Source of the DNA: a virus
Taxonomy: Duplodnaviria; Caudoviricetes
IMG/VR virus record: IMGVR_UViG_2974731583_000001
Span: 34,668 to 98,667 of that record
Direction: 5' to 3' (one strand)
Length of the DNA: 64,000 nucleotides
Translations under genes and position numbers: made by a program
Shown: piece after piece, positions 44,581 through 64,000 of the stretch
How the letters are laid out: each line of letters opens with the position of its first letter
Position numbering within the stretch: the first letter of the stretch is position 1
The notes under the pieces: model-generated
Database searches by the model: none
The model's input: the letters and a program-made list of their open reading frames with translations, nothing else
Told to the model about the DNA's origin: nothing

Positions 44581-44611
44581 AAACGGCGCTATTTAAGTAC
44601 TGTTTATATAA

Positions 44612-46879: not shown

Positions 46880-47261
46880 TTTGTTTCTGACTTAAAAGTT
46901 CTTGAATCATTTCATCTACCTGCTTGTGATTTCTCACAAGATAACATGTCATTTTAGATCTGTGTCGTTTCAGGTAATATTTAAACAATTTATATCTTAA
47001 AGGAAATGAATCTCCTATAAGACCTTTACATTCTACCACAAACCCTTTTCCTATAAAGTCTGGTAGATATGTAATAGGGCGAATCTTTTCGCCCAAATAC
47101 TCGAACTTTGGAAGTAGTGTAAAATGCTTTGGCTCATATTTCACTGGTATACCAGCTTTCATAAAAGCTTCATAAGTATAGAGTTCGAGTTTACTCCTAA
47201 AATGGATTCCATACTTATCGACCGATGTCGCATTCTTTACCCTACCACCCTGCTTTTTCAT
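46866..47261 (-). CDS. Small PD-(D/E)XK endonuclease (DUF1064 / T7 endonuclease I-like resolvase)
   Basis: FRSKLE; YEP..F.L; TYLPDF; VVECKG. Confidence 0.75.
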   Translation of the reverse strand: MKKQGGRVKNATSVDKYGIHFRSKLELYTYEAFMKAGIPVKYEPKHFTLLPKFEYLGEKIRPITYLPDFIGKGFVVECKGLIGDSFPLRYKLFKYYLKRHRSKMTCYLVRNHKQVDEMIQELLSQKQNEKQ

Positions 47262-48247
47262 GGATCATAGTCTCTTGTATAAGGGGTTAATGTTTTATCT
47301 AGCCATGCTTTCACATCGCTAAATGAATTATTTTTTACAGCATCAGATATGTCTTTTGCGTTAAATTTTTTGTTTACAAAGAACGCATGTAGCTTATAGC
47401 GTTTACTATAATCTCTTGCTTTTTGCATTCCTGTTTTGTCACGATCATACAATATAAGCATTTTTTTCCATTTACTCCGTAAAGACTTTAATATGTCTTC
47501 TGGAATAAATGTGGTTTCACTTGAGCTAGCTATAGCATAAAATCCCATCTCATACAAACACATTACATCCTTTAGAGATTTTGTAATGATTAGGAGATCA
47601 CCACCCTCTTTTGGTAACTCGGCTAGTCCCTGTACGTGCCGATTTGTCAGATTGGTACGCCATTTAGTATACTTAGAGGCTAATGGACGATAAATCTTAA
47701 ATTTATCATACACTTTATATGCATACATAGGACTATCTTCTTTGTAGGTTCCTCTGACGACTCTATTACAAAGAAAGTATTTTATGCTAAATACATTATA
47801 TCGTCGTAATGTATCAATAGATATATGAAATTGCTTCCAATATCTTTTGTCTATCTCAGTGAAAGGTTGACGAACAATACCGATGTCTGTATCTACTCTA
47901 GATGTATATTCTTTTGTAGTATTAATTTGTACATTAGTAGGATTAATCCTTCTAACTATACGCAACAGTTCTCTTTCGAGTTCATCTCTTGTTTGTAACC
48001 CCTTGTAAAGCTTCATAAATTTTAGTGCATTACCAGATACTCCAGTACCGTGGTCTTTAAACAATAAAACACCTTCTCTACTATAAAATATAGCAAATGA
48101 AGGCATCTTATCATTATTTCTTAATGGACTATTTATAAGCTTTCCTGGCTTTATGTTGCCTAAATAATATGAGTATATTGTATAATCATCAACTTTATTC
48201 AATAAGTCTTTTAGACTCATTGTAATTGCTGTTTTTGTACTATACAT
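47258..48247 (-). CDS. DNA primase (DnaG-like TOPRIM, crAss type)
   Basis: SPLR.ND..PSF; FKDHGTG; IITKSLKDVM; SET; LYDRD.TG; KDISD. Confidence 0.85.
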   Translation of the reverse strand: MYSTKTAITMSLKDLLNKVDDYTIYSYYLGNIKPGKLINSPLRNNDKMPSFAIFYSREGVLLFKDHGTGVSGNALKFMKLYKGLQTRDELERELLRIVRRINPTNVQINTTKEYTSRVDTDIGIVRQPFTEIDKRYWKQFHISIDTLRRYNVFSIKYFLCNRVVRGTYKEDSPMYAYKVYDKFKIYRPLASKYTKWRTNLTNRHVQGLAELPKEGGDLLIITKSLKDVMCLYEMGFYAIASSSETTFIPEDILKSLRSKWKKMLILYDRDKTGMQKARDYSKRYKLHAFFVNKKFNAKDISDAVKNNSFSDVKAWLDKTLTPYTRDYDP

Positions 48248-48265
48248 GGTTTAAAACTCTTTATG

Positions 48266-48401
48266 TGGCTCCGTAGGGAATCGAACCCTACGTGGACTAG
48301 TAACTATGTCATCATAAAACAACTATGAACAAACGAACCTTTCGTTATGATATTAGATATTAAGTTGTCCATGTCTGTGTTTCTCAACACCCTGACGAGC
48401 C
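48266..48401 (-). ncRNA. tRNA/tmRNA-like structured element, 136 nt, non-canonical
   Basis: 5' GGCTC pairs with 3' GAGCC-A. Perfect T-arm GTAGGG-TTCGATT-CCCTAC. GTGTT-GAGA-AACAC hairpin. Long TGGAC/GTCCA-closed stem in place of the anticodon arm. Confidence 0.55.
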
Positions 48402-48464
48402 GTGGGAGGGGCATTTCACCCCTCTAGGTCAATAGAATTGACTGCTCCACCAACCTGCAAGCGA

Positions 48465-49073
48465 TTAAAAAGGTAAATCGTCTGCAGGGTTTTTATTTTC
48501 ACTCACAGTGTCCGGAATAATGCTTGGTGGGAGATTAAGCGGGTCATTTTGTTCTGTATCTGCGGATACAGGACGCTCCATAAGATCCTTTTTAAAGATC
48601 TTTATCTGCGAGTCTGCTATTTCCATTTTCTCAACAAAAATACCGTTCTGACTTACTTGGGTATAACCCTTTTTGTCATAACATACCTTAAGTCGCAATG
48701 GCTTATTGGTACCGATCATTGGGTCAAGAATACCTTTTACCCAATTGATCATGTCTATAAAAGTATTTAGTTCAGCGTCTGGACGCTTATCATAGAAACA
48801 ATCAATGATTTGACAGATGCGTCCAAACTGAACGTTATCGCGTCTCTGTAATTCTTCGTCTGTCTTAATCCATTGATTCTTTTCGTTTTTCCATTCCGTC
48901 ATACTTGCGGTCTGGCCGTCCGAGTTTTCGAAGATAATCTCTAAGAAATCTCGACCGTTTTGGGTTTTGTTTACATTTACCTCTTTAAGGGTTATATTTT
49001 CGTTAATACCTACAGGCATGTAAGAACCTGTGAATTCCTGATTATTTGTTGTTGCTGTTTTTGTACTATACAT
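48465..49073 (-). CDS. Single-stranded DNA-binding protein, 202 aa (start corrected to 49073)
   Basis: C-terminal acidic DDLPF tail. The start at MYSTKTATT avoids overlap with the upstream gene and has an AT-rich leader. Confidence 0.7.
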   Translation of the reverse strand: MYSTKTATTNNQEFTGSYMPVGINENITLKEVNVNKTQNGRDFLEIIFENSDGQTASMTEWKNEKNQWIKTDEELQRRDNVQFGRICQIIDCFYDKRPDAELNTFIDMINWVKGILDPMIGTNKPLRLKVCYDKKGYTQVSQNGIFVEKMEIADSQIKIFKKDLMERPVSADTEQNDPLNLPPSIIPDTVSENKNPADDLPF

Positions 49074-49089
49074 AATTCTTAACTCTGAG

Positions 49090-49842
49090 TTATACTTCTG
49101 GTTTATACACACGATCCCAATACGTAGTAATGGAACCGTCTTCGTTTCCGGTGGCAATAACTATATCCTTTCCTGCAATATGTTTTGCTCTAGCTTGCAT
49201 GATGGTTTCCTCATCACTGTTCTTAAAGCTAATATGGGTTTCGTTACCTTTACGGTACATATAACCCACAGCATCTGCTAGTCCACATATAATTCTACCG
49301 AGTTTTCCGACTAGATCGATTTCTTTTGCGTTTACTTCTTGTCCGTCTTTTTCTGTTATACTATCTTTGACATGTCCAATCAATATAAATTGATCACACA
49401 GCTCTTTAAACATATCGATTACTTTCTTTACAGCATCGCGTAAGTACTTATAACCTGCACCTCGTGGTAGTGTTGTTACATCTGTTCCTTTCCAGTTTTT
49501 ACCCAGTTCGGTAGAACGATATAATGTACAGGCATAAGACATACAAATGTCTTCGAGTCGTGTTGCATTATCGATAGTAATGTGTTTATAGAATTTATGT
49601 CCAACCTCTTCGTTCTTAGCTCGAATGGCTTGAGCAATTTCGCCTAAGTCTGCGATTGTTCTTGCTTGAACAGCAAGAGCATCGATAAACTTAGATCCGC
49701 CTTCTAGGTCTATAATAAGATTGTTCTCTATTTGTGCTACAGCACTAGTTTTACCTGTTTTAGGCAAACCATAGAGAACAAGATATTGTGGATTTGTTGA
49801 AGTTGCTGGAACTTTTTTGGTAGGTAGTACTAATGTGCTCAT
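49090..49842 (-). CDS. Sak4-like / AAA_24 ATPase (recombination-associated)
   Basis: LYGLPKTGKT; IIDLEGG; ITIDNAT; GAGY; ILIGH. Adjacent to SSB. Confidence 0.8.
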   Translation of the reverse strand: MSTLVLPTKKVPATSTNPQYLVLYGLPKTGKTSAVAQIENNLIIDLEGGSKFIDALAVQARTIADLGEIAQAIRAKNEEVGHKFYKHITIDNATRLEDICMSYACTLYRSTELGKNWKGTDVTTLPRGAGYKYLRDAVKKVIDMFKELCDQFILIGHVKDSITEKDGQEVNAKEIDLVGKLGRIICGLADAVGYMYRKGNETHISFKNSDEETIMQARAKHIAGKDIVIATGNEDGSITTYWDRVYKPEV

Positions 49843-49844
49843 TT

Positions 49845-50282
49845 TTATTGAATAACACTAATTTTTAAACCGTTTACGTAAATATCAACAATTGTCTTCT
49901 TTGTCTTCTTAGGAAGAAGATTAAAGAAACTCTTTTTGCTAAAATCGTTATAAAAATACAGATCAAAGCCAATTTGAATAGAGTCCTCAAAGAAGATTAC
50001 AGGAGTATTACCAATGTAATATGTTACACCATATACATAGGGGGTATTATTCTTACCATAGTTGGCAAGAAAATTCTTGGCATCGATAAAAGTAGCTACA
50101 TCGTCAATAGTCGTGGTCTTACTTGTAGTATTGGTGGTGTTCAGGTAATAGTTCTTATCCATTACATCAGCAATAATAAGATCATCGAGCATCTTAGAAT
50201 AATCGGGCTTCTCAGCACGAAAGTTAAAGATTGAATTACTAGTGTTATTACTCTTATCAAAATCAAAAATATAGTTTTTCAT
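49845..50282 (-). CDS. Hypothetical protein, 145 aa
   Basis: Clean ORF abutting the next gene. Confidence 0.65.
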   Translation of the reverse strand: MKNYIFDFDKSNNTSNSIFNFRAEKPDYSKMLDDLIIADVMDKNYYLNTTNTTSKTTTIDDVATFIDAKNFLANYGKNNTPYVYGVTYYIGNTPVIFFEDSIQIGFDLYFYNDFSKKSFFNLLPKKTKKTIVDIYVNGLKISVIQ

Positions 50283-50321
50283 ATGTTCAGCCTTTTTTAA
50301 ATGTGTATACTATATCGTCTA

Positions 50322-51248
50322 TCAGCATTCTATCAGATTGTTGTACATCAGTTCGTTCTCGAATTCGATTATACAAGGTTTTCCCGCATCTCTATTTTTC
50401 AAGATGTGCAAGTACACCTTATTACTTGTCTGCAAATGACTTGGTCCGTATTCTGATATACCAAGGATTTCTGGTCGGTGTAATACTAATACGTAATCAC
50501 TCGCTTGGAATACTGCGTCAGACGACGAAATATCACTACGCATAGGGTAGTGGTTTGATGGATTGTTTATTCTTTCTGAAGATTCTATATTTCTATTCAT
50601 TTGACCAAGCTGTATAACAGAAGTTAGAGGGAGTTTCTTTACTTGGATAAAGACTCTTTCTAACTCACTAATTGTTTCTAATACAGAACCAATCGGTTTT
50701 GTTAATAAAGTATGGTCATATATGATAACAAAGTGTTTATTTGTTCCTTTAACGTGTTCGTTGTAGAAACTCATAATAACTTCATTTACCTGCATGGGAG
50801 TCATCGGATTATCTACAAAGTAGATAGGATACTCCTTTAGCTGATTGGAAACATTTATGACTTTTCTGAATGTATCATCGTCTAGGTCCGTTTCCGAACT
50901 ATACAGGGTGGAAGTTGTTTTTCTAATTTTGTTAGAAATTGTTCTTCCAACTTGCCTAAATCCAACCATTTCTAATGAAAAGGTAAGAATTATAGTTTCT
51001 TCATTAGGATTACAATCTATCAAGTCAGTTTGGATTAAGTTCGCCATTGAACTCTTTCCGCTTCCCGAGATGCCAACTATGGTATAAACGGTATTTGGTT
51101 CAATACCTCCCATACATTGCTTGTTAAACTTTTTCCATCTCGTTTTTAGGGATACTATATTATGTTCTCGTCTTCCTGCCATATAAGCGATAGCTTCTTT
51201 CGTTACTACGCTCATTGGTCTAACGATTTTAGACAAATTCTGTTCCAT
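50322..51248 (-). CDS. dnaB: DnaB-like replicative helicase (C-terminal ATPase domain only); likely start MEQNL at 51248
   Basis: GISGSGKS; FSLEM; IIYDH; LGQMNR; P.RSD..SS....QASDYV; KNRD. Confidence 0.85.
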   Translation of the reverse strand: MEQNLSKIVRPMSVVTKEAIAYMAGRREHNIVSLKTRWKKFNKQCMGGIEPNTVYTIVGISGSGKSSMANLIQTDLIDCNPNEETIILTFSLEMVGFRQVGRTISNKIRKTTSTLYSSETDLDDDTFRKVINVSNQLKEYPIYFVDNPMTPMQVNEVIMSFYNEHVKGTNKHFVIIYDHTLLTKPIGSVLETISELERVFIQVKKLPLTSVIQLGQMNRNIESSERINNPSNHYPMRSDISSSDAVFQASDYVLVLHRPEILGISEYGPSHLQTSNKVYLHILKNRDAGKPCIIEFENELMYNNLIEC

Positions 51249-51789
51249 ACGCTTTTGTAGCTTTTGACTCATCGTTCATTTCATCTTCAATTGCTTCCCA
51301 TTGGTTTCTTGTTAACCAATTCCACATGGTCATCATATACCCACTAGAGCCTTCGCGCGAACGTTTTGCTAGTTCGTATTCTAGACATCTAATTAGGTGT
51401 TCTGCTGTTGCAGGATTATGACCACATTTAGTATTGAACATGTTTCTACACTTATTTACGTTTGCACGCAAATAGCTTTTGGACCCATCTTTTCTAATAA
51501 CATATACAGGGTACATTTCGTAAAACAGATCAAAATAGTTCTTTTTTAGGGTAAGAACTTCGTTAGCTTTCTCTGTTATACTATATGTTACCGTATCACT
51601 ATTCTCTATCATAGTGACATATCCTTTATCAATTAAGTCTGATATTTCAACGTCGTCAATAAGGCTGACTAATTTACGAGCGCTTTGATCTAATTTTTGA
51701 TTCTTACTCAATATCAAACTTAGGAAGATTAACTGATTGTTATTTATATCTCCTAGGTTTAGGAGATCAGTGTTTACTTCTAAAATCAT
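51229..51789 (-). CDS. Putative replication initiator / helicase loader (wHTH plus FYEMYP...WL....WE)
   Basis: F..FY..YP and WL.+..WE motifs typical of phage replication-organiser C-domains. Overlaps the helicase start. Confidence 0.55.
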   Translation of the reverse strand: MILEVNTDLLNLGDINNNQLIFLSLILSKNQKLDQSARKLVSLIDDVEISDLIDKGYVTMIENSDTVTYSITEKANEVLTLKKNYFDLFYEMYPVYVIRKDGSKSYLRANVNKCRNMFNTKCGHNPATAEHLIRCLEYELAKRSREGSSGYMMTMWNWLTRNQWEAIEDEMNDESKATKAYGTEFV

Positions 51790-51816
51790 ACTATTGACTC
51801 GTCGGTTCTAAGTTGG

Positions 51817-53706
51817 TTAAAAAAGTTCTAATTGTTGTTCAGTAAAGTCAGAAATTATCTTTTTGGCTTCGCTGATATAGTAACGGTAATTTACCTTTCG
51901 GTCTACCATTAAGCGATCATCGAGTTTATTTAAAACAGTTACTCCAGATTTCGTTAACATGTTGTTATATTGTAGTTCTCCATCTGGATTTTGTTTAACT
52001 TTATATAGGTATGCACCATTTGTTGATGCATAAAACCTATTTATTCGTTGAATTGGTTTATCTCCATGTTCAACTTTAAACTTTCTATCGACAGCTTGTG
52101 TCATTAGAAAATCATATATATCGTTATCGTTTTTAATAAACTCGTCAACGGATTGTCCGGTTAAGAAATAATTTATAACAGCTTTTGGTATTACAACCGG
52201 TGCTAAGCCTTTACCAAGTTTTGTTTCTGTTATAAACATACCTTTCTTTTCTATCAATTTTGGATTATGAGATTTTGACCATCCTTTAATGACACCAAAG
52301 TAGTCATTTATAGCGTATTGATAAAACGCTTCGTACTCATCTATTTCAAAACTAAGTTGGGTTATAGATTCTACTTCTGCTATAGCTTCCTGAATTCTAT
52401 TTGCAGAAGTCTTTTTTGATCTATAAACTACACCATCTGTATTGCATTGGATAATCTCACAGCCCAATGACAATAAGCGATCCACAACCATCAATAAAAT
52501 CAACTGACCGTTAATTCTAATTTTGAATACGTTAAATGGATCATATAACCAACTTACCTCCTGTTGCATCTTGCCTGTAGGAGAATTAAGCACAATTTTT
52601 AGGAACTTGTTCTTAAGGTCTTGACCAGTACGTTTTGCTTCTATTCTCTCTTTATACAAATTTGAGAATATATCGCAAAATAATTTTCCTAAGTGGCGAG
52701 GTCCCCATTGATATTTAATCAATAGAGACGGATACATTGATGTTACATCAGCGTGTCCAATAAACTCGTCATCTTTAGGGAGGAATATTTTAGGAGTATG
52801 TATAGTATGTATACCACCAACTCCTATAGAATACACCACATTCGAGAGAACAAACTTCTTCTCGTAGCCTTTTCGCTCTTTAGAGTAAACTACCTGTTCC
52901 TTCATTTCCTCTAAAATGCTCTGTAACTTTGGGTTTTTGTATTTTATAAATGGCAGAATGACATCTTTCAATGGAATATAGTCCATTGGAGATCTCATTT
53001 CCTTTATAACATTTTTCGGAATACCTGATTTATTAGAATATTCTTCTAACAAAAAGGTTTCTGCCATTTTCACAGAATCCATCGATAAACAATCAATTCC
53101 GTGTTCGTGTTCAATAAATAATCGCAATTCGACATCACCCTTCAGTTTGTTTAATAACTCTTCTGTTGAGTTAACGTCGTTTATATTGTAGGATATCATA
53201 TTGTCTATTTCACATGCAGGAAGATTGTTTTCAAAATCTCCTTCATACTCATATACGTTTTTATAACGCATTGTTATCTGCATTGTTTTCAGTCCTACAC
53301 GCAATTTTCTACTAAACAACATTGTTAATAAGTCCATAGAATAGAAGTAATTTGCATACCTCCATCTTTTGACTTTATCTCTTGTTTCATCCTCGTCTTT
53401 TACCAATGTTTGTGAAAGATTGAACAGAGAGCCACATATTTTCCAATACGGTAAGAATTGCATCTTGTTGTAATAGTCTATAATATAGTTTATAATAACA
53501 TCATCGTAGTGTTTGTTATTATACCCGCAGAACATTTTGTCAGTACCAGATACGAAAAAACCAACTAGTTTATCCAGCTGGTTCTTTCTTTCTGATATTT
53601 CAAATTTGTATAGTTCTCCGGTCTCTGTGTCCTTTGCACAACAATGGAATACGTTAGGAAATATTTCTATGTCGTAGACATATACTTTTTTGTTTCGTAT
53701 CCACAT
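51817..53706 (-). CDS. polB: DNA polymerase family B with 3'-5' exonuclease, 629 aa
   Basis: ExoI YDIE, ExoII GYNNKHYD, ExoIII YNINDV. Region II DVTSMYPS, region III K..LNS.TGK, region I NTDG. Confidence 0.9.
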   Translation of the reverse strand: MWIRNKKVYVYDIEIFPNVFHCCAKDTETGELYKFEISERKNQLDKLVGFFVSGTDKMFCGYNNKHYDDVIINYIIDYYNKMQFLPYWKICGSLFNLSQTLVKDEDETRDKVKRWRYANYFYSMDLLTMLFSRKLRVGLKTMQITMRYKNVYEYEGDFENNLPACEIDNMISYNINDVNSTEELLNKLKGDVELRLFIEHEHGIDCLSMDSVKMAETFLLEEYSNKSGIPKNVIKEMRSPMDYIPLKDVILPFIKYKNPKLQSILEEMKEQVVYSKERKGYEKKFVLSNVVYSIGVGGIHTIHTPKIFLPKDDEFIGHADVTSMYPSLLIKYQWGPRHLGKLFCDIFSNLYKERIEAKRTGQDLKNKFLKIVLNSPTGKMQQEVSWLYDPFNVFKIRINGQLILLMVVDRLLSLGCEIIQCNTDGVVYRSKKTSANRIQEAIAEVESITQLSFEIDEYEAFYQYAINDYFGVIKGWSKSHNPKLIEKKGMFITETKLGKGLAPVVIPKAVINYFLTGQSVDEFIKNDNDIYDFLMTQAVDRKFKVEHGDKPIQRINRFYASTNGAYLYKVKQNPDGELQYNNMLTKSGVTVLNKLDDRLMVDRKVNYRYYISEAKKIISDFTEQQLELF

Positions 53707-53790
53707 GACTCTCAGGTTCTTAGTTATACTTAGTGCGTGTGGGGGTTATAATCCCCCTACAGCTATATTATGCTGTACACGCTTCACATG

Positions 53791-54495
53791 TTATGCCACT
53801 TTCTTTTTTATTGGCACTAATACCCCTCCGGTTTTTCCTCCGTGAGATTTTAATACCGCACATGTCATGTTTTTATGGTCTTTCCATGTGGCAGTGGTAA
53901 TTGCCTGTGCTTTTAATATCAACTTAGACTTTTTTGAGTCTAATATGTTGACATTATGGCCTTCGTTATGAGCATCTTTTATTTTTGCAATAAGATGATC
54001 TTCATATACGTGAGGTTTTACCTCGAATCGGCCTATTAGTGGTAGCTTATTAAACATAGTCGTAACCAAACGTTCTATGTTACCAATCGCTGCTTTTTTC
54101 TTTTCTTCCCATTCAGGTAGGAATTGAGATTCAAACAGGTCTTTTTGTGAATCATCTGTTTTTACTGGACATGGATTTCGTTTAATCCACTTTTCTAGCT
54201 TATAATTCACAAAGGCTTTCATTTTTTCATCTTTTGATAGATTCTTAAACAAAGTCTTTTCTATAAGAGAATAGTCTCTGTACTCTTTTTTACCTAAGTT
54301 CTTTGGTTGTGGATATGACATCTTCTTCCAAGAATCATCATATACATACTCTCCAGCATCGTTTTTAACTATTTTACGATGCTTGTTCTCGAACTGGGGT
54401 ATTGTATTGTTATTAACCGTATATTTACGAGAATTGGTTGCAAGGTGCGCTACTTTTCTTCTACGAACCTTAATACGAATGCTGCTATGTCCCAT
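53791..54495 (-). CDS. Hypothetical basic protein, 234 aa
   Basis: Clean ORF, Lys-rich. Confidence 0.7.
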   Translation of the reverse strand: MGHSSIRIKVRRRKVAHLATNSRKYTVNNNTIPQFENKHRKIVKNDAGEYVYDDSWKKMSYPQPKNLGKKEYRDYSLIEKTLFKNLSKDEKMKAFVNYKLEKWIKRNPCPVKTDDSQKDLFESQFLPEWEEKKKAAIGNIERLVTTMFNKLPLIGRFEVKPHVYEDHLIAKIKDAHNEGHNVNILDSKKSKLILKAQAITTATWKDHKNMTCAVLKSHGGKTGGVLVPIKKKVA

Positions 54496-54518
54496 ATTAA
54501 TTTCTCTATGTAATGCAT

Positions 54519-55160
54519 TTATGCTGCTTTCTTTTTAAGTTGTTTGCCGCTATTTTTATTCTTTCGGATAGGCACAATAGTAGCCTTTTTTGCCTTTCTA
54601 GAGGCTCTGACATCAGCTAAGTTCTTCTTTTTCTTAGCTTCTGCTCGCTTTTCTATTTTGCTTTTCCGCTTTGCGACTTTCTTTTTCGGCACCTTTTTGT
54701 TTTGTACGACGTTATCTCCATCGTCAAAATCAATTCGTTTCTTGCGTACTAGCGGTTGTATCTTTGCGCTGTCTGGTAGAACTTCTCGTAATTTATTGAG
54801 CAATTCGTTATCTCCTACGAACTTCATCCAGTATTCCATGATAATATTATCGTTGGCTTTTGTATCTATGTGCTTGTTTACTATAGACGATATAATCTTG
54901 TAATCCTTTTGAGGAAAGAACACATATATGTCATATGTGTTAGGAGATGCCAGGAGCTCTTTCAGTTTTTCTACGTATGCATTAGTCTTTTCTTCAGACA
55001 ATCCATATCTCTTGCATCTTCTTTTCAATGCGTTGACACGGAATGCAACATAATTTTGTTCACGACGCTCTGCTTTTGTGAGCTTACTTGTGTTATCTAC
55101 TGTATTCTCGGTTGTAGTCTGACCATTATTGGCAGTGTCTACTATGGTATTTTTCTTCAT
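54519..55160 (-). CDS. Hypothetical protein with very basic (histone-like) C-terminal tail, 213 aa
   Basis: KKVPKKKVAKRKSK...KQLKKKAA tail. Confidence 0.7.
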   Translation of the reverse strand: MKKNTIVDTANNGQTTTENTVDNTSKLTKAERREQNYVAFRVNALKRRCKRYGLSEEKTNAYVEKLKELLASPNTYDIYVFFPQKDYKIISSIVNKHIDTKANDNIIMEYWMKFVGDNELLNKLREVLPDSAKIQPLVRKKRIDFDDGDNVVQNKKVPKKKVAKRKSKIEKRAEAKKKKNLADVRASRKAKKATIVPIRKNKNSGKQLKKKAA

Positions 55161-55279
55161 AATTTGATATTATTAAATTAAACATGTGTCGTTATTACGA
55201 CTTAGTGACTAGGTGGGAGCATCGAATCCCTCTGATATAATATCAGCTGTCCACATACAAATCTAGTCTATCGATAACT

Positions 55280-55825
55280 TTATACTGTTATGTCATCGAT
55301 AAAATTATTTGAACAATTAGCAAGGTCAATCGTTGTGTTCTTATTGAACTTATCCAATGCTGCATCGTGCTTATTTGCCTCCATCTGATGTTTGTTTATC
55401 AGGGATGCAATCTTCGCAGATGTAAATGTTTCTATCTTGCTAAGCTTGTCCAAGCCCTTCTCTGCTTTAAGAGCTGGGTTTATAGTTTTAATCATCTTCA
55501 ACTGGGCAATTGCCTCTTTAGCCTCACCAGCAGCGAAGATTGAGTAATTGTTCGTCTTTTTAAATGCCTCTATGTCAAACATAGTGATACCCATATTGAG
55601 GTATTGTAGCATTCCTTTAATCATGATTCGTTTGTTAGCCATTTGAGTAATCTCATTATAGAGAGCTTTAAGGTCATAGTTAGAACCTAAACCTGCTTTC
55701 TTGGCTTTCTTACTCATTACGTTTTCACTTCGAATAATTCGCCAATAATCGTTAATTTTACGATCGAGGTTCTTACGAATGATGATTATACTACCTGAAT
55801 TCAACTTGATTGTCTTATTTTCCAT
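55280..55825 (-). CDS. Hypothetical helical protein, 181 aa
   Basis: Clean ORF with AT-rich leader. Confidence 0.7.
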   Translation of the reverse strand: MENKTIKLNSGSIIIIRKNLDRKINDYWRIIRSENVMSKKAKKAGLGSNYDLKALYNEITQMANKRIMIKGMLQYLNMGITMFDIEAFKKTNNYSIFAAGEAKEAIAQLKMIKTINPALKAEKGLDKLSKIETFTSAKIASLINKHQMEANKHDAALDKFNKNTTIDLANCSNNFIDDITV

Positions 55826-55891
55826 ATTATATTGATTAAATTAAACATTAGTTGAATTCGAGAAGTCATTTGCGTGATTTAAATTGGTTAC

Positions 55892-55949
55892 GAGCCAAGA
55901 TAAATCAAAGAATGTTTAAAGAACCGAGATAAACCAAAGAATGTCTAAA
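55892..55949. repeat. Imperfect 29-nt tandem repeat, 2 copies
   Basis: gagccaagataaatcaaagaatgtttaaa / gaaccgagataaaccaaagaatgtctaaa. Confidence 0.8.
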
Positions 55950-56143
55950 TAGGGATTAGAGTAAGTCTCCCGCAGAAGTATACTCAATGCCCCGCAGAGC
56001 ATGTTCCCTATTTTAGACATATGGTTTTGGAATATTCTAATATAAAATGTTAGATAAATTGATTTGTATATAATAGCACGTACATGTGTTGATCTCCCGA
56101 AGAAGTCTTCACAGCCCCCGCAGAGGCTTTTAGCGTACCCGCA

Positions 56144-56737
56144 TTATTTTCCACCAATCCATCGAGCATTCAATATTTCGAATACATTTCCAACGCAATC
56201 GACAACCTTAAATGTAACTGGTGTTACAGGTTGAGGTGTGTCTTTTACGTGTATCACAACTTTGTTATTACTGTCAGATGGTGACTCTTTTTGGGTGTGT
56301 GAATTAAGCCCACTAGTTTTCCAATATCCATCTGATGTTAAATGGCGTACAATGTCGAAGAATCGATCTACAAGCCAGTCCCAATTCTTTTCACGAATAC
56401 CTCGCATAAGAGTTTCGTGACCCAGTCCTTCTAAGACTGGTGTTGCAGCCTTGGTTCCAGCTGTCATATCGACTAATGCATCCCATACACGAAGAGCGAA
56501 CTCTTCAAATGAGATGTCTTTCTTACATTTGATAAGGTTATTCCAGAAGTTACCTAACGGAGAGTTCCAACTGTATTTACCCAACTGAATCAATCCGTTT
56601 TCACGGACGATTTTGACCGAAGTGTAACGCTCACTATGTTTGATAGGAGCAGTTACTCGGTCATAAATCTTTGGTTCCTTAAGGAGAGCCTGTATCAAAT
56701 CACAGCTTTTGGCTGTAAGAGAACCACAACTCTCCAT
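56144..56737 (-). CDS. Hypothetical protein, 197 aa
   Basis: Clean ORF 5 nt from the upstream stop. Confidence 0.7.
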   Translation of the reverse strand: MESCGSLTAKSCDLIQALLKEPKIYDRVTAPIKHSERYTSVKIVRENGLIQLGKYSWNSPLGNFWNNLIKCKKDISFEEFALRVWDALVDMTAGTKAATPVLEGLGHETLMRGIREKNWDWLVDRFFDIVRHLTSDGYWKTSGLNSHTQKESPSDSNNKVVIHVKDTPQPVTPVTFKVVDCVGNVFEILNARWIGGK

Positions 56738-56742
56738 ATTGT

Positions 56743-57366
56743 TTACTCTTCGTGATTAGCAGGAGAGATCACAATGGTAGGAGAACCAGGAGCACCTACT
56801 GCCTGTTTAGGAGTAGAGCTAAGAATCTGCTGGGTGTACTCGTTGGCACGATCTGAATTGTTCTTAATAGTAGAAATGAGACCGTCACGCATCTTTGTCA
56901 GTTGAGCAATAAATGCGTTGATACGAGCAACTTCAATCTGGTTCAACTCGTTTGCCTTCTTGGCAAGAGCCTCGCCATCTGCATAGATGGTATTAGAACC
57001 AGGGTTGGTGAGAGACTCCTTCATAGCCTCCTCAATCGGACGATTGAATGGATTGCTACCAGCGATGATAGCGGCACTTGCCTCAGATTTCTCTCCAGGA
57101 TTGAAGATCACAACGGTAGAACCATCTACGTTGGTCTTAATCTGCTGAGATACTACGTCATAACCGCGTACGACGTAGCGGACAGGAGTGCGGTTTGGCA
57201 TAAAATCTTTAGAACCGCTGTTGCTGTTCTCGAGCTTTACGCGGTCGAAGTCGGGGTACGACTCTACTGCACCGAGGGTGAAATACTTTCCGCCAAGGAG
57301 GCCTCCAATAATGTTAAGTTGCTTGCGGTTCTTTTCTACTACCGCCATGTTTACGTTTGTTTCCAT
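56743..57366 (-). CDS. Hypothetical protein, 207 aa, codon bias suggests high expression
   Basis: Clean ORF rich in AAG/GAG/AAC codons like MCP. Confidence 0.75.
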   Translation of the reverse strand: METNVNMAVVEKNRKQLNIIGGLLGGKYFTLGAVESYPDFDRVKLENSNSGSKDFMPNRTPVRYVVRGYDVVSQQIKTNVDGSTVVIFNPGEKSEASAAIIAGSNPFNRPIEEAMKESLTNPGSNTIYADGEALAKKANELNQIEVARINAFIAQLTKMRDGLISTIKNNSDRANEYTQQILSSTPKQAVGAPGSPTIVISPANHEE

Positions 57367-57384
57367 ATGTCTTATCCTTTTTGA

Positions 57385-59585
57385 TATCGTTATTGATTAA
57401 CTAACGATAAGATTAATAATATGCTACTTCAAAAGGTGTAGCGTTACCTTTGAGATATGATAGTTTAACATCTTGGCTCAAAGGCTCTCGGATGTCTTTT
57501 CAATTTTTATATACATCTTTACCCGTGCTTATGAGAGGGATGTTTTTGGTAAATCCATACAGGTTGTTTCCTAGCTAGATAGACTTACACAACTCGAAGT
57601 TGGTTCTTTCTATCGGGGATCAAACGGTATGATCAGCTATGCCCGTCATTAGGAAATTCTTCTGTCTGCGATAAAACTGCAAACATTGATGTTGTACAAT
57701 CAAGTACAAAATTTACTAAGATCATTTTGTTTATTTTTTGTAAAACAATAATAGACAATTTAATGCCTACTTCTTAAATGAACCAACTAGTGCTAAGCTT
57801 TCGCATCCTAAACGGCAAAATTTTGGTTCTTCCCACGAAAGTTAGTGATATCTTTAGCGTATTTTCCAAGTATGCTTAGATTCACCACGATTGTTATTTA
57901 ACCACAGATTTTCTCTAATGTTGTCAACATTTTCACACATCCAGATTATCAGGAATGTGATTAGGCTGTCGCTAATTTACCTTTTCCTACTTAACGTGAG
58001 GAGTACGTTTCTTTATCGAACAGTCTCACCTTCAGGGGGGTCAACGACTCTACGGCTTGATTTTTTATCTTGGCAAGTGCTTGCCTCTTTGTTTATAGTG
58101 CACGAATACTGGAGGAATTCCACCTCATACCTTATCATGCTTGTCACCCACTTATCTTCTTTGCACATACCTCGAGACAGGAGGTAGTGGTTCCTGCATA
58201 CGATTATATCACTGCGTCTAATCAGTTGATAAGCTGCCCATCACATTTTTGGTATACGACTTTATACTTTCCACCCACATAGATTTGCGGTCTATGCTTC
58301 GCTTCGTTTCGTATTCTGTCAATTATTTCTCAGTCACGGTTGGCACTTGACACCGACTCAATCAAAAAATGGCTAATTTACTATCCATACAACGGTAGTT
58401 AACGGCTTATTATTCCGCTTATAATTAACGTAATTTGTCTATCGGGGGACATGTCGTTAATAATGTTATTTATAATTATTCGCGTTGACTTATTTTCATA
58501 GAAACCATCTTAGCTTAAAGTTATTATTCATATTTAGTATATAACACAAGGTCACGTGTGTTCAGGGACTAAGTAGTATAGCAATAACAGTAGCGATTTC
58601 TATTATTATCCGTCTAAGCATGTATCTGGATCTCTTTCAATACTGGAGTGTACTGTGTCGAATCGAAATACATAAATGATATTGGTTTGGTTGGTTAATT
58701 GTCAGGTAATTATCCTTATTGCTTACCACAGCTTTTTGGTTCTGTGGGGCATTTTTAAAATAGACAACATTGTTCGCTTACCAACAACATTGAATTCACG
58801 TCAGCCTTTGAACGCGGGCTCTTCGTCGCGTAATCACTATTGATTTCAGGTCTGCATTACCTGCTGGTCATTCCACTTTTTTATCCCGCATGAACGAACA
58901 AGGCCTGGCGGTCACACTTCATCGTAATTCAGCCGTTTTACCAACTATATCCCCTGCGCGTGTTAACCAGAGGCACCAGATTTGCACTGGACTGGACTTA
59001 CATAGGCGACGTAGTTACGGTACATCCTGTAAGTATTATCCTTACAGTATTGTTTACTCTGTGTATTTTTTCGGACCTTTATATTGGCGTTGGAGACCAA
59101 AAACACTATCCTACAGCTTTTATTGGTTGATACATCATATAAGGGTGGGATGCCTACTTACTCTAGTCATACGTCGATATCATTGCAGACAATGCCATAC
59201 CATGTACATTCTCTCCCACAACGTAGGTTTTCAGTATTTTCTTATATGTTTCAGCTCGTGTACGTAATTCTAAGGATGTATCAGTCACTTAGATTTATCG
59301 ATACGGTTCATTTTTGCTCTTCTTGAGACTTACGGGTCTTTTGTTATTATTCCATCACCAGACGGTTCTCATGGTAACAAGGAGGTTGATACATACCCTT
59401 ACTCCTCTTACTGTTTGCTTTTCAACTGTACAACAAAAACAGAACAAACAGCATTTCATCCTACCTTTTGGGTTTCTCACCCTTTGAGAGGGCTAACATA
59501 TTCTCAGATCAAGTATTGTTGTATACGATGGTCCTGGGCTAATGAGACCCACTATTTTTAGCGTTCCACACGCCCGACCAAAGGA
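57385..59585 (+). ncRNA. Candidate very large structured non-coding RNA (~2.2 kb)
   Basis: No credible ORF in a genome that is otherwise packed. More than 25 hairpins, many with G-U pairs that form only on the + strand. Confidence 0.5.
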
Positions 59586-59589
59586 AGAA

Positions 59590-60042
59590 TCAGTGTGGAA
59601 TACTATCCAGTTTGGTAACTGTATAATACTCCACAGACGTGTCGTCTTCACAACACGTCATTTTTGCCAGATAATACACTGGGCGATCAACATATATTGT
59701 ATCACCCCGTGTTCGATTTACTCTTGTGCGTTTTTTAGTCGCGGTGAGTTTAGTTCTCGTTGCCTTAACTTTCTTCTCCAGCTCTGTTATACGAGACTGC
59801 AGAGAATCGGTGTTTATTTTAGGAGTGTTTACCACTTCCTGTGCACCTTGTTTTTTCGCTTGGTCTAACAAAAGATCCAAGGGCATTGACATTTTTGAAT
59901 CAGTTGACATATTCATTGCCATAGTTGGCAATGTTGCCGCAAAGGCACCATTCTGATTGTCGTTTGTTGTTTCATGTAGTGCAAGTCCTATTCCAAAGAT
60001 TGCAAACATCATGGAACACAAAATAGATGTAAATTTTCTCAT
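59590..60042 (-). CDS. Membrane-anchored/secreted protein with coiled coil, 150 aa
   Basis: N-terminal hydrophobic segment (MRKFTSILCSMMFAIFGIGLAL) and TDSLQSRITELEKKV coiled coil. Confidence 0.7.
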   Translation of the reverse strand: MRKFTSILCSMMFAIFGIGLALHETTNDNQNGAFAATLPTMAMNMSTDSKMSMPLDLLLDQAKKQGAQEVVNTPKINTDSLQSRITELEKKVKATRTKLTATKKRTRVNRTRGDTIYVDRPVYYLAKMTCCEDDTSVEYYTVTKLDSIPH

Positions 60043-60140
60043 AACTTTGATAGTTTTTGATTACTCGCCCCAGAAGAATTTGTCGATTCTGTTCTTAACG
60101 GCCGTCATAAAGTCGCGAGACTTTTTCTTAATGACGGCAA

Positions 60141-61553
60141 TTATTTTTTTGAACCTTCCTCTTTTGCAGGCTCTTCAACCTTCTCTTCTGTAGACTCGTT
60201 GGTTACAATCAGTTCTGTGATATTGCTTTCTTTGTAAGCAATGTTCTGCTGCAAAGGATCACGGAACATGTTGATGATTACACCAGCATACTGTTGCATG
60301 TTGTGGATAAGAGAATCATGTTCAACCTGCTTAGGTGTGATTCCACGATAGTAGGTCTTCATGATTTCAGAAGCAGTTCGGTGAGCGGTTTTGTATTCTT
60401 CGTGCTCACGATTGTCGTATGCTTCTGGCAGAATGTCAGCAATTGCGGTAGAAGGATCTGTTACAAATGAAGAAACTTCCTTGTAACTTTCGATGCAAGA
60501 CTTATATGTCTTGATCTTTTCATTCTCCTTTTCGATTGCTTTGGCGTTCTGCTTCTTGTTCTTGCTCAAAGCCTTGATGTTAGCCTCGCATGTAGCGATT
60601 GACTCTTCATCAGCTGTGATCTTGGAATCTGCATTCCAAGTTACAAGAATCTTAACCATAGATGCTACTGCCGAATCATCGATAGTAGGATGGCCGGTGG
60701 TTTTGTCAAGCGTATTGTTGCGGAACATGCAGAAAGCCGCCACAGGGCTCTTAGTAGTTGCCGTCGCCGTATACAGAAGGTTTGAAATTCCGTGCATGGA
60801 GAATGGACAGGGGCCAATAATCTTAACCACGTCTCGAAAGAGTTCCTCATTAGAGGCATCCGATACCTTTTTCTTGGCGGCCTCATCGTCGCCTGCACGA
60901 AAGTACAAATAGTCACGATAGAACTTAATCAGGGAAAGAATTCTCGCATACGGACGCGCATCTTCCTTGGTAGAGGCAAGAATATATATTCCACCTTTAC
61001 GCACTCCCTCTTCAGTAGTTACCTTTGAACCATCTGTCTCAGGAATTTCTTCTGCAATGGCGTTCTCCTTTTCAATAGACGCCTTGGTTTCCTTAGATAC
61101 AGTTATTGCTGTACTAGGAAGTTCGATGTTTCCATTTACATCTGGTGCTGGAAGCGCCTTAGTATCCAAATGGATACCAACTTCTCCGCTAAGTGCTACA
61201 ATATTATCTACTGTGCTCTTAGGAAGCAGCATTGTAAATGGATTCTTTGCAAGAGTAATCTCGCATGCGAGAGCTGCTACTTGCATCACAGCATTAATCT
61301 TATTAATACTGTTTACTGTTTCTTGTGGCATACCTGTGTGGTTGGCTGCCATAGGATCTTTACGGAATGTCTCGTGCATTACGGTAATAAGATCCATACG
61401 ATGGTTAGGATCCAGACCTGCAACATGTACTGCCATTTGCTCTGGAGACATGTTTGTCAGATTTTCCATCTGCTCAGAGGTTACTTTACTGTTGTCAACC
61501 TTCTGCTCTACTTTAGGAGCCTGTGCTCCCATTTTTCCTGTTTTCTTACTCAT
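60141..61553 (-). CDS. Hypothetical protein, 470 aa (497 aa, ending at 60061, if -1 frameshifted)
   Basis: Long clean ORF ending on A-AAA-AAA-TAA followed by a hairpin. Confidence 0.8.
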   Translation of the reverse strand: MSKKTGKMGAQAPKVEQKVDNSKVTSEQMENLTNMSPEQMAVHVAGLDPNHRMDLITVMHETFRKDPMAANHTGMPQETVNSINKINAVMQVAALACEITLAKNPFTMLLPKSTVDNIVALSGEVGIHLDTKALPAPDVNGNIELPSTAITVSKETKASIEKENAIAEEIPETDGSKVTTEEGVRKGGIYILASTKEDARPYARILSLIKFYRDYLYFRAGDDEAAKKKVSDASNEELFRDVVKIIGPCPFSMHGISNLLYTATATTKSPVAAFCMFRNNTLDKTTGHPTIDDSAVASMVKILVTWNADSKITADEESIATCEANIKALSKNKKQNAKAIEKENEKIKTYKSCIESYKEVSSFVTDPSTAIADILPEAYDNREHEEYKTAHRTASEIMKTYYRGITPKQVEHDSLIHNMQQYAGVIINMFRDPLQQNIAYKESNITELIVTNESTEEKVEEPAKEEGSKK

Positions 61554-61620
61554 TTTGATAATGGTTTTAAGAGTTAAATAATGTTATTGACTATAATGAA
61601 CCTTTGCCGGAAAGTAACTT

Positions 61621-62049
61621 TCATGAAGTATCAAACATGATATTCTTTATTATGTTACTCCGTGGCATATGTTCATTATATACCCTCATTGGTTGATCTC
61701 GCTCTTTTGAGCGGATCTTAAACAAAGTATTATATCCTTCTACCACATCAAGTGTGTAATCCTTACTTGCAGGGACAGCATCTGTCACATGCATATTGGC
61801 GATCATGATCAAATCGTTTGTAGTAGGTTCTAATGAACTTAACGACTGATCTGATACCTGCATGGGGCACACTTGAGTAATAGAAGAATTAGTACTTTGT
61901 TTGTCGTCCTGGATGTTACGTACAATCGTTGCTATTGCAAAAGCGGTACACAACGAAATAAGCAACTGCCAGAACAGGCGATCGTCTTCGTTATATCGTG
62001 CGATAAGAACGATAACAATCACTGCTAGAACGAACAAACTTAAGATCAT
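61621..62049 (-). CDS. Two-TM membrane protein, 142 aa (possible anti-sigma partner)
   Basis: Two N-terminal hydrophobic helices. ATGA overlap with the ECF sigma stop. Confidence 0.65.
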   Translation of the reverse strand: MILSLFVLAVIVIVLIARYNEDDRLFWQLLISLCTAFAIATIVRNIQDDKQSTNSSITQVCPMQVSDQSLSSLEPTTNDLIMIANMHVTDAVPASKDYTLDVVEGYNTLFKIRSKERDQPMRVYNEHMPRSNIIKNIMFDTS

Positions 62050-62609
62050 AATTCTTGTTTAAATTGTTTTTGGATTTTTTTGCGAGTCCTAAACAACAAT
62101 GACTTAATAGTTCCAGTTGGGATATTTAAGGCCTCTTTAATTTGAGATACTGTTAAATTATCTATGTAAAATAATTCACATACTTGTTTTGTCTGTTCCG
62201 GCAATTTTTCAAACTCTTCAAGTATGTTTTTGTAAGTTAGACGATTTACCATTTCGTCTTCACTTCCAACAACAGCATTACAACTGAATCCTTTATTTTT
62301 AAAGTTTTCAATCATTCTACTATTGCTTTTTACTTCACGTAAATAATCTATAGCAACTCTGTTAGATAAAACTCTTAACCATCCACCAAACGATTCATAT
62401 TCGGTGAATGTCGAGAGCTTTTTGTAAACCTTTAGAAATACAACGTTGGTGATATCATCAGCTTCGTCTGGATCCTTTATATAACTAAATAGAATTTTAG
62501 ATACAAAAGATCTATATTTCTGAAAGATTTGAGAGAACGCAGATTCATCACCTGCTTGGGCTCTTTTGATTATCCCAATCTCCTCTGGGGTAATACGTGG
62601 GGTTTTCAT
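62046..62609 (-). CDS. ECF-type (sigma-70 group 4) RNA polymerase sigma factor
   Basis: GDESAF..IF.KY; A.DI...VFLKV; F.GWL.....VAIDYLR; LP.....V..L......T..QI...L.IP.GTIKS.LFR.RK. Confidence 0.9.
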   Translation of the reverse strand: MKTPRITPEEIGIIKRAQAGDESAFSQIFQKYRSFVSKILFSYIKDPDEADDITNVVFLKVYKKLSTFTEYESFGGWLRVLSNRVAIDYLREVKSNSRMIENFKNKGFSCNAVVGSEDEMVNRLTYKNILEEFEKLPEQTKQVCELFYIDNLTVSQIKEALNIPTGTIKSLLFRTRKKIQKQFKQEL

Positions 62610-62745
62610 AATCAAACAAACAATATGCTAGATAAACTAGGGTGGTTATTAACCGTACGTAACGATGTTCAGACACCAGCTGTTTTAGTGGGGATATTAG
62701 GTTTCGCTCCTGTGACAACATAAATTGTCTATATCCCCAATATTG

Positions 62746-63192
62746 CTAAAATGGTAACATATCGTCCAATAACGAATTTCTCAAATCAGCAATATTTGCA
62801 ACAAGTATTTCATGGAACCATAATGCATGACGCTTGCTAACAAAATTCGCCTCTTCAAGTTTATTCAACATGCATGTCGCTATTCGCAATCTTACATTAG
62901 TTGAATAAACCGATTCTGAGCATCTTAACACGATGTTTTTGTTTATCCATCGTATTAAAAGCATCAGGTGATGATTTGTTAAACATTCGTATATATAATC
63001 ACAGTCTGTGAAATACTCGTCTTTAGTTAGAGGACTTATACATACAACATGATGATCCGACAATACGGGATCATACTCGAATTTACTTTTTGCTGTTGTT
63101 AGTTCTCTCATGTGATCTAGAGCACTTTCTATAGTACTCTCATTTCGCCGAGAATATCTCGATACTAGATAATTGGAAAATACACCGTACAT
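62746..63192 (-). CDS. Hypothetical protein, 148 aa, ends DDMLPF-TAG
   Basis: Own ATG with A at -3. Acidic-aromatic C-terminal tip followed by TAG. Confidence 0.6.
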   Translation of the reverse strand: MYGVFSNYLVSRYSRRNESTIESALDHMRELTTAKSKFEYDPVLSDHHVVCISPLTKDEYFTDCDYIYECLTNHHLMLLIRWINKNIVLRCSESVYSTNVRLRIATCMLNKLEEANFVSKRHALWFHEILVANIADLRNSLLDDMLPF

Positions 63193-63195
63193 AAT

Positions 63196-63696
63196 CTACT
63201 TAGTGTTGCCTTCGATGCAAGAAATTAAGAATTTTGCTAATCTTTTTCCTTCATCGTCGGAATAATCTGGGAAATACTTAGTTGACATTTCTTTTATGAA
63301 AGAATCTTCTTCATACTTTCCAGTCTTACGAGAGATGCTATACATATTTTCTATGTAAGCATAATTTACTGAGAACCAATCCACCCAGTTGTCGACCCAA
63401 TTCCAATAGAATTGTTCTTCATCTGTTAGGTTCTCCCAATCAATTGTTTTGTGAAAATCAAAAAATCGGGGTTTTCCTTTTTTAAGACCTAATAAGGCAC
63501 GAGTCACTTGCTTCTTGTTGTCCTTTTTTGTAGATTTGATAGTACCATTTTCTAGTACTTCATCACCTACTATACTTACAAAACAATCATACACGTGGTT
63601 AATCCATCGTTCTTTTGCTTTACACCATTTTAGTGCAAAGTTTACTACTTCAGGACATCTATCTCGAAGCATTTCTTTGTATCCTTGTTTCTTCAT
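63196..63696 (-). CDS. Hypothetical protein, 166 aa, ends in TAG
   Basis: Starts 4 nt after the tRNA-Leu 3' end. Confidence 0.65.
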   Translation of the reverse strand: MKKQGYKEMLRDRCPEVVNFALKWCKAKERWINHVYDCFVSIVGDEVLENGTIKSTKKDNKKQVTRALLGLKKGKPRFFDFHKTIDWENLTDEEQFYWNWVDNWVDWFSVNYAYIENMYSISRKTGKYEEDSFIKEMSTKYFPDYSDDEGKRLAKFLISCIEGNTK

Positions 63697-63700
63697 ATTG

Positions 63701-63786
63701 TGCTCTAAGCGGGATTCGAACCCGCACGACCATTACTGGTCAAGGGATTTTAAGTCCCTCACGTCTACCACTTCCATCATTAGAGC
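63701..63786 (-). tRNA. trnL: tRNA-Leu(TAA)
   Basis: GCTCTAA/TTAGAGC-A acceptor, AGGGA-CT-TAA-AA-TCCCT anticodon arm, long variable arm, GCGGG-TTCGAAT-CCCGC T-arm. No encoded CCA. Confidence 0.95.
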
Positions 63787-63787
63787 T

Positions 63788-63990
63788 ATTAAAAATGTTG
63801 ACCGCATTTCACAACGAAGCCAACACAAAAGTATTATGCCTAATAAGAATATTTATATCGTGGACCAGCTAGGGCTTGAACCTAGGACCTCCAGATTATG
63901 AGTCTGTTGCTCTAACCAACTGAGCTACAAGTCCTTATTAGATGATTGCCACATTAAAAACACTAACCGCGTTTCACAACGAAGTTAGTG
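63788..63990 (-). repeat. Two copies of a conserved hairpin upstream of each tRNA (63796-63825 and 63961-63990)
   Basis: Shared core TTCGTTGTGAAAYGCG closed by different but pairing 7-bp stems, each followed by TTTTTAAT. Confidence 0.75.
63861..63934 (-). tRNA. tRNA with CAT anticodon, most like Ile2 (lysidine-modified); Met not excluded
   Basis: GGACTTG...TAGCTCAGTTGGTTAGAGC...CAGA-CT-CAT-AA-TCTG...CTAGG-TTCAAGC-CCTAG-CTGGTCC-A. Confidence 0.9.
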
Positions 63991-64000
63991 GTCGTAGCAA

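Follow-up and report, generated by a model that had tools for sequence, protein, structure and literature searches.

OLE RNA recruits the proteins OapA, OapB and OapC, and its kink-turn is bound by OapC. The pRNA of phage phi29, 174 nt long, forms rings through intermolecular loop-loop contacts and is a structural part of a protein machine. GOLLD, with more than 800 nt, is the largest of the ornate RNA classes; both GOLLD and ROOL are often found near tRNA islands and form RNA-only nanocages, and in the RNA homo-oligomers (GOLLD, ROOL and OLE) symmetric intermolecular kissing loops appear as adjacent self-complementary 4- or 6-mers, which covary yet are palindromic (PMC12286853). The locus described here is a 2.2-kb gap between protein genes for which a conserved, structured non-coding RNA is proposed (57370-59560, minus strand, with the 5' end near 59560 and the 3' end near 57370). 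It lies in a 64-kb window, which is the whole stretch of DNA that was analysed, from the IMG/VR record IMGVR_UViG_2974731583_000001. The window is the terminal part of a crAss-like phage genome of 98.7 kb. Over the query region it is 99.6% identical to a pig-faeces phage, cr273_1 (NC_055904.1; Buhlduvirus animalis of the Oafivirinae, Suoliviridae).

The gap extends from 57367 to 59589, between a 207-aa gene on its downstream side (56743-57366, minus strand) and an annotated 150-aa open reading frame (ORF) on its upstream side (59590-60042, minus strand). No ORF inside it exceeds 125 aa when read with code table 11, with TAG as glutamine (TAG=Q) or with table 4, and each stop codon was found 6-32 times in every one of the six frames. 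The gap is the sole long non-coding stretch in the window with TAG=Q allowed in the late arm, and under that reading the original prediction of a single long gap without a protein-like ORF was borne out. A gene hidden under another code was rejected, as neither TAG=Q nor TGA=W (table 4) opened a frame in the six-frame translation that had been proposed as a check, and no period-3 conservation was seen.

In order to assemble a homologue set, 107 IMG/VR loci were fetched with a conserved 17-mer. An nhmmer profile confirmed 81 of them, and 18 were full length and less than 93% identical to each other. In the alignment of these 18 genomes, the period-3 power ratio was at most 1.4 across 57375-59600, compared with 5-20 in the flanking genes, whereas column conservation was 0.44-0.66 in the gap and 0.29-0.43 in the genes. 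The absence of period-3 despite the better column conservation rules out that the gap hides exons, recoded genes or a gene in decay. The gap is under stronger sequence constraint than its neighbour genes. By blastn, the region was detected in six other phage records from five or six genera of Oafivirinae; it is always blank over 2.0-2.2 kb, with an unchanged order of genes around it. These gaps could be aligned end to end, with 51-61% nucleotide identity between genera and blocks at 70-85%; the protein adjacent to the gap is 22-32% identical across the same relatives.

The sense-strand ORF-free gap measured 1974-2278 nt in every IMG/VR locus with enough flanking sequence, and in each of these the conserved motif was separated from the two adjacent genes by 1750-2010 nt on one side and 205-355 nt on the other. 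Gap size and motif position hold even in clades where the profile recognises only 100-200 nt. The gap is 2.1 kb in Loutivirinae (Blohavirus, Buchavirus), 2.08 kb in Bearivirinae (Afonbuvirus) and 1.85 kb in Uncouvirinae (Aurodevirus). These three subfamilies and Oafivirinae share the order large protein, protein of about 150 aa, gap, protein of about 200 aa and protein of about 190 aa, all on one strand. Judged from these sequences, the element is a family-wide locus of the crAss-like family Suoliviridae, present in four subfamilies of the International Committee on Taxonomy of Viruses with a gap of 1.85-2.3 kb. That length and layout stay fixed through heavy sequence turnover argues, indirectly, for one constrained architecture. 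No second copy and no complementary target of the motif was found in the 98.7-kb genome, where near-matches were at control level.

Covarying structure was evaluated by scanning, with no energy term, for column pairs that stack and covary. Column permutation was too lenient a control, and antiparallel stacks were therefore compared with parallel ones. The scan revealed 33 local antiparallel covarying helices against 5 in the parallel control, and 15 against 1 when a Watson-Crick covariation of at least 4 was demanded. Consensus folds were calculated with RNAalifold, using as null the columns shuffled within conservation and gap classes. For the whole family alignment, the minus strand reached -297 kcal/mol, against -100 ± 8 kcal/mol after shuffling. 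The same procedure gave z-scores of -7.4, -12.3 and -8.2 for three sections of the gap, and -2.9 and -7.0 kcal/mol (z +0.6 and -1.5) for the flanking coding alignments. The minus-strand consensus consists of 57 helices and 260 pairs, 173 of which display double-sided compensatory change. A distant clade, which was aligned separately, gave a consensus fold of -521 kcal/mol against -342 ± 12 for its shuffles.

Two domains were subjected to a covariation test. Between 59303 and 59534 (37 sequences less than 95% identical, from several subfamilies), 93.7% of the cells were paired against 73.0 ± 1.1% in shuffles, with 126 against 32 cells showing double-sided change; the covariation score was 0.561 against 0.176, and slid registers gave 0.08-0.13. 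Between 58090 and 58460 (18 sequences), 93.0% of the cells were paired against 83.0 ± 0.9%, and double-sided change was found in 18 pairs and 55 cells, compared with 9.3 and 17.7; slid registers gave 0.05-0.13 against 0.393. None of 500 shuffles reached the observed values in either domain, so both passed this formal test. Lack of coding signal, conservation, and compensated pairs beyond the controls are the general marks of a large structured non-coding RNA, and all three were observed. The gap is thus probably a conserved, heavily base-paired non-coding RNA locus, with dozens of helices held by compensatory change, among them helices that close multi-branch domains of 90-250 nt. The core of the original prediction, a very large conserved structured RNA, is strongly supported by the conservation, the missing coding signal, the covariation and the lack of an Rfam match described below.

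Whether this locus gives one molecule is a separate matter. Tentatively, the whole 2.1 kb could be one RNA, larger than any other structured non-ribosomal RNA known from phages or bacteria. It would be made in early or mid infection, from the sense strand, in every member of the family. Such a molecule might work as an RNA machine or as the scaffold of a ribonucleoprotein (RNP), with its invariant loops as contacts and a pseudoknotted core at 58.1-58.45 kb, doing a job that other phages give to proteins.

Several observations weigh against the proposed large structured RNA. No compensatory support was found for a helix spanning more than about 300 nt, so nothing links the domains as one molecule. 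Inside the element neither a conserved -7 promoter box nor a U-tract terminator was detected, and no promoter, terminator or protein partner could be assigned. In four RNA-labelled public libraries from four studies, the region occurs in contigs of 8-29 kb, which are spread evenly over the whole phage, and no transcript can be discerned in them; these contigs are probably DNA carry-over or total-nucleic-acid viromes. The MAFFT alignments are poor in variable stretches, which makes the helix list incomplete and partly wrong. The strand is called from wobble statistics and from differences in energy, and the counted cells come from related sequences and are not independent. Finally, when this sequence was folded by itself with windowed RNAfold against dinucleotide shuffles, the mean z was -0.04 on the plus strand and -0.59 on the minus strand. 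This is chance level, and the near-continuous stems that had been described from the single sequence were not upheld by it. Since single-sequence folding is no better than shuffles, the structure is visible only in comparative data. As a side observation, the libraries that gave these contigs (window 44001-64000), labelled as metatranscriptomic or RNA-Seq and derived from pig gut, another gut sample and wastewater among other sources, hold the phage or its close relatives.

The 2.1 kb might instead comprise several smaller independent structured RNAs or modules, for instance a pair of roughly 1 kb each, or a series of five or six with 100-400 nt each, cut from one precursor or made from separate starts. 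This is considered somewhat unlikely. All compensated helices are local or close domains of up to about 250 nt, the long-range candidates do not rise above the parallel-stack control, and conservation troughs separate the cores at about 57420-57560, 57770-57950, 58360-58420 and 58700-58760, all as expected for modules. However, the total length (1.85-2.3 kb) and the motif position are held within about 10% across the four subfamilies, which is unexpected for a loose array of cassettes. In addition, no module was missing, duplicated or swapped in about 50 loci, and the lack of a conserved internal -7 box or U-tract terminator speaks against separate units as well.

The orientation of the RNA was examined through its wobble pairs. 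Watson-Crick helices cannot separate the strands, and for this reason helices were defined with both wobble types allowed. A:C in plus-strand letters, that is G.U on the minus strand, was found in 58 cells and G:T in 23, with 15 helices leaning in the former direction and 3 in the latter. Base composition predicts slightly more G:T, opposite to the observed bias. When helices were searched with the pairing rules of the minus strand, 32 antiparallel covarying helices were obtained against 13 in the parallel control (11 against 1 at a stricter cut), whereas the rules of the plus strand gave 36 against 34. In Oafivirinae the minus-strand consensus was 39-48 kcal/mol better than that of the plus strand, with shuffle baselines differing by 8; in the distant clade it was 45 kcal/mol better, with baselines differing by 26, thus 19 net. 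GC and AT skews continue unbroken through the gap with the sign of the minus-strand genes. Together, these sequence statistics make it likely, with fairly good confidence, that the RNA is read from the minus strand, in the same sense as the flanking genes.

The original prediction had placed the RNA on the plus strand, antisense to the operon, on the basis of G-U pairs and of UNCG and GNRA loops read on that strand. A functional RNA of that orientation is now improbable. It is true that Watson-Crick helices are equal on both strands, and that the plus-strand consensus is also far beyond its shuffles (-249 against -92 ± 8 kcal/mol for the whole family alignment, and -476 against -316 for the distant clade). 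Three terminator-like sites were found on the plus strand as well, though 2.8 are expected by chance. Against this stand the wobble cells, which favour the minus strand by about 2.5 to 1 and contrary to composition, the covarying helices, which exceed their control with minus-strand rules only, the greater stability of the minus-strand consensus in two independent clades, and the skews, which match minus-strand transcription. Moreover, neither GNRA nor UNCG occurred in either sense among the 34 four-base loops of conserved hairpins.

Nine of the stems named from the single sequence were scored in the 18 diverged genomes, and only three or four of them held. The stems at 58168-86 (Watson-Crick fraction 0.78, 6 compensated pairs) and 58278-96 (0.74, 7 compensated pairs) were clearly kept. 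Those at 59027-47 (0.67) and TTCCTA/TAGGAA (0.71, with many gaps) were partly kept. The others were not conserved, namely 57447-84 (0.36), 57856-76 (0.49), 58726-47 (0.40), 59326-39 (0.48, no compensation) and GAACCA/TGGTTC (0.50); several of the latter lie in poorly alignable stretches. A tenth stem, TGGTC/GACCA, was located outside this scoring. Stems, G-U pairs and plus-strand loops seen in one sequence are weak evidence, because a T-rich strand mostly gives them by chance.

In the predicted RNA sense, the first part to be described is a hairpin, H1 (59535-59551, minus strand as all the following parts), of 6 bp, 4 of them compensated. Its stem covaries (GGG/CCC, CAGG/CCUG, UAAGG/CCUUA and others) around the conserved loop UCUCAUUAG. 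Helix H2 (59458-59509; 59509-06 with 59461-58) encloses a covarying inner hairpin; it was 97.2% paired, and 4 of its 4 pairs displayed double-sided change. A hairpin AGGAG...CUCCU (59380-59406) follows, with a conserved loop of GAGCGUUGUAUCAA type, 89.6% paired and with double-sided change in 5 of 5 pairs.

The next hairpin (59352-59374) carries the most conserved block of the element, UGAGAACCGUYUGGNGA (59371-59355), on a covarying closing stem in which both sides had changed in 16-19 of 37 sequences per pair. In the reading preferred for the block, an asymmetric internal loop (5'-GAGAA / 5'-NG) lies beneath a 2-bp CC/GG stem that is capped by a GUYU loop. The loci had first been fetched by this invariant block itself, and they were therefore sampled again with a different anchor 100 nt away; in the independently anchored set, the block was exact in 58 of 81 loci. 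It is likely to be a contact site for a protein or another RNA. As a separate question, a Kt-7-like kink-turn was considered at this position. A kink-turn has a three-base bulge followed by tandem sheared G.A/A.G pairs, with an essential adenine at 1n, an unpaired L1 and a variable 3b.3n. The block fits this consensus and 3n varies (U/A/C) without compensation. However, the presumed L1 and 1n covary from U:A to C:G (three times) and to A:U (once) in the independent set, like a Watson-Crick pair, and the kink-turn was rejected.

Further downstream, an 8-bp helix (59248-41 with 59143-36), 7 pairs of which are compensated, closes a domain at 59136-59248. A well conserved central domain (58760-59055) contains hairpins at 59026-08, 58992-74, 58973-57 and 58898-67, and has a closing helix formed by 58907-899 with 58810-02. 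The consensus energy of the section 58360-59320 was -108 kcal/mol against -35 ± 6 for shuffles. Near the 3' side, the stem 57648-42 with 57617-11 (57611-57648) encloses the hairpin 57634-30 with 57622-18.

The multi-branch domain at 58097-58347, of about 250 nt, holds hairpins at 58297-77 and 58186-68 and a long irregular arm. It is closed by the long-range helix AGUGC (58347-43)/GCACU (58101-097), together with CG/CG (58338-37 with 58104-03). The AGUGC/GCACU helix was 98.9% paired, and 4 of its 5 pairs are compensated, in three genomes (L106, L004 and L057). Because this compensated helix closes about 250 nt, the tested domain at 58090-58460 is more than a row of hairpins. A candidate second long-range helix, UGUCCCC (58451-45)/GGG-UGACA (58150-43), spans 58143-58451. 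It was 94.4% paired and varies almost only from G-C to G-U in the minus sense. It crosses AGUGC/GCACU, and the two would form a pseudoknot if both are real, which is possible and unproven. The helix CCGAU/GUCGG (58445-41 with 58357-54; 58354-58445) encloses the hairpin 58398-82. It showed a canonical fraction of 0.98 and 5 compensated pairs, with the variants UUGGC/GCCAA, CAGA/UCUG and CUCUAU/AUAGAG in relatives.

The last part is a two-tier hairpin (57370-57412), which stops 3 nt short of the ATG that starts the 207-aa gene. It has 9 bp, a canonical fraction of 0.98 and 6 compensated pairs, and may be a 3' boundary, a processing site or a translational operator. Its position bears on another explanation, according to which the whole region is a cis-acting leader or spacer of the operon messenger RNA, for example one that serves processivity, antitermination or stability, or that acts on the 207-aa gene as a translational operator. 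The shared sense with the flanking genes and the lack of internal terminators agree with a leader, as does a conserved, compensated hairpin next to a start codon. Nevertheless, no known leader needs anything close to 2 kb with invariant loops and conserved helices by the dozen, and the downstream protein evolves much faster than the RNA. A leader is therefore quite unlikely.

A DNA-level element (replication origin, packaging site or structured single-stranded DNA signal) is very improbable; a structured single-stranded DNA origin had been regarded as the main alternative. Such an element would suit the location in the arm with DNA polymerase and primase, and strand-biased wobble also fits a single-stranded DNA form of one strand. 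However, the gap has neither iterons nor tandem repeats, it lacks an AT-rich stretch for unwinding, and its GC content of 0.40 is above the genome mean. The skew stays unchanged across it: cumulative GC skew has its extremes, and the coding strand switches, at genome 6-8 kb and at 79 kb, some 13 kb from the gap. Known origins, moreover, are far shorter and do not have 2 kb of conserved helices.

Searches with Rfam 15, which had been listed among the checks, gave no catalogued family for the element. With cmscan at the gathering threshold, only two tRNAs were detected over the window; no match was obtained over 57200-59800 at E ≤ 10, and none inside the gaps of five diverged homologous loci at E ≤ 1. 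The element is therefore not GOLLD, ROOL, OLE, a group I or II intron, RNase P, tmRNA or another catalogued family. An intron was rejected on further grounds: neither Intron_gpI, Intron_gpII nor D1-D4 was matched, the 207-aa gene has its own conserved start, and no codon periodicity enters the gap. Covarying palindromic kissing loops were looked for in the 18 genomes, and no window had at least two distinct palindromes; this test has low power, and contacts of A-minor type are invisible to it. In the literature on non-coding regions of crAss-like phages and Crassvirales and on large phage non-coding RNAs, no description of the element was found. Yutin et al. (2021) went no further than to mention unexplained short-ORF regions, mostly in the Zeta group (PMC7886860). 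That the element is unlike any catalogued RNA family is strongly supported by the Rfam comparisons.

The gap is located in the replication and regulation arm, which encodes DNA polymerase and primase. Its downstream neighbours are basic proteins (pI 9.6-10.1) and its upstream neighbours are small membrane proteins. This much of the RNP context that had been proposed is correct; nothing ties either group to the RNA. Pfam and PHROGs gave no names for the neighbouring proteins, except for an ECF-type sigma factor three genes upstream. For the 207-aa and 197-aa neighbours, the models from the ESM Atlas were of low confidence (pLDDT 0.50 and 0.37), and no fold match above TM 0.5 was found. A search for related loci with the flanking protein recovered the phage itself and nothing else, and the proteins had diverged too far for a usable alignment. 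Two tRNAs (cmscan) and the tmRNA annotated in NC_055904.1 are situated 4-5 kb upstream on the same strand; in that record, the tmRNA and tRNAs are annotated just past the window end.

Some observations concern the surroundings of the gap. In the C-terminal part of the 150-aa ORF (about 70 codons, 59590-59800, minus strand) no period-3 conservation was seen and identity was 0.27-0.33, while the N-terminal part, which contains a transmembrane segment, looks coding. Two very stable minus-strand hairpins were observed within this tail, at about 59600-59680 (z -4.8 for the region). The tail may be non-coding, or its hairpins may be part of the 5' edge of the RNA locus. At 60140-60155 (minus strand), a run of at least six A at the stop of a 470-aa gene was kept in practically every one of the 18 diverged genomes, with 19 hits falling into a single 10-nt bin. 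In the plus-strand arm (window 1-45000), about twenty apparent gaps of 0.4-1.2 kb under the standard code vanish when TAG is read as a residue; TAG is therefore recoded in the late (plus) arm, and the minus-strand arm uses the standard code. Outside the window, more ORF-poor stretches of 0.5-1.65 kb lie near the start of the minus-strand arm (genome 5927-7580, also 2586-3134 and 5109-5626), and these may contain other non-coding RNA genes.

In the reading of the locus that is considered likely overall, a very large structured RNA of about 2.1 kb would be transcribed from the minus strand together with the replication and regulation arm, probably by read-through, since no conserved internal promoter or terminator was seen. 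It would fold domain by domain during transcription, into a row of at least five or six domains, each closed on its own. Its action would be exerted by the invariant unpaired loops and internal loops, contacting a protein or another RNA, and the hairpin abutting the start codon of the 207-aa gene may mark the 3' end or a processing site. A role as RNA machine or RNP scaffold, in the manner of GOLLD or ROOL, is a guess by analogy.

Suoliviridae, the delta group of crAss-like phages, rank with the most abundant gut viruses of humans and animals, and to our knowledge no unusual biology of this family has so far been tied to an RNA. Present annotation skips one of its best conserved genes, if the locus is what it appears to be, as the GenBank records inspected all either leave the region empty or list spurious small ORFs in it. 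In the records of relatives, the homologous gap holds a 160-aa ORF on the plus strand, or a dozen ORFs of 30-100 aa on both strands; these are almost certainly spurious, because coding periodicity is absent. A folded RNA of 2 kb, if true, would be over twice as large as any ornate phage RNA so far and would be a prime target for cryo-electron microscopy. The strand assignment tells which probe and which in vitro transcript to make.

Compared with known systems, the element shows no similarity to phi29 pRNA and no signature of oligomerisation was found, whereas that RNA illustrates one way in which a conserved phage RNA with invariant loops could act. OLE (RF01071) resembles it as a large structured RNA with conserved internal loops, and offers a model for the role of the invariant internal loop. 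OLE is, however, a chromosomal RNA of extremophilic Firmicutes with about 600 nt; it was not matched, and the kink-turn is contradicted by covariation in the element. From GOLLD (RF01998) and ROOL (RF03087) the element differs by its more than twofold size, the lack of any sequence or structure match and of covarying palindromic loops, its position in sense between protein genes, and its restriction to one phage family as far as sampled. It shares with both that it is phage-encoded and protein-free, that it lies in a region also carrying tRNA genes, and that it appears to have an elaborate fold, defined by covariation, with multi-stem junctions and possible pseudoknots.

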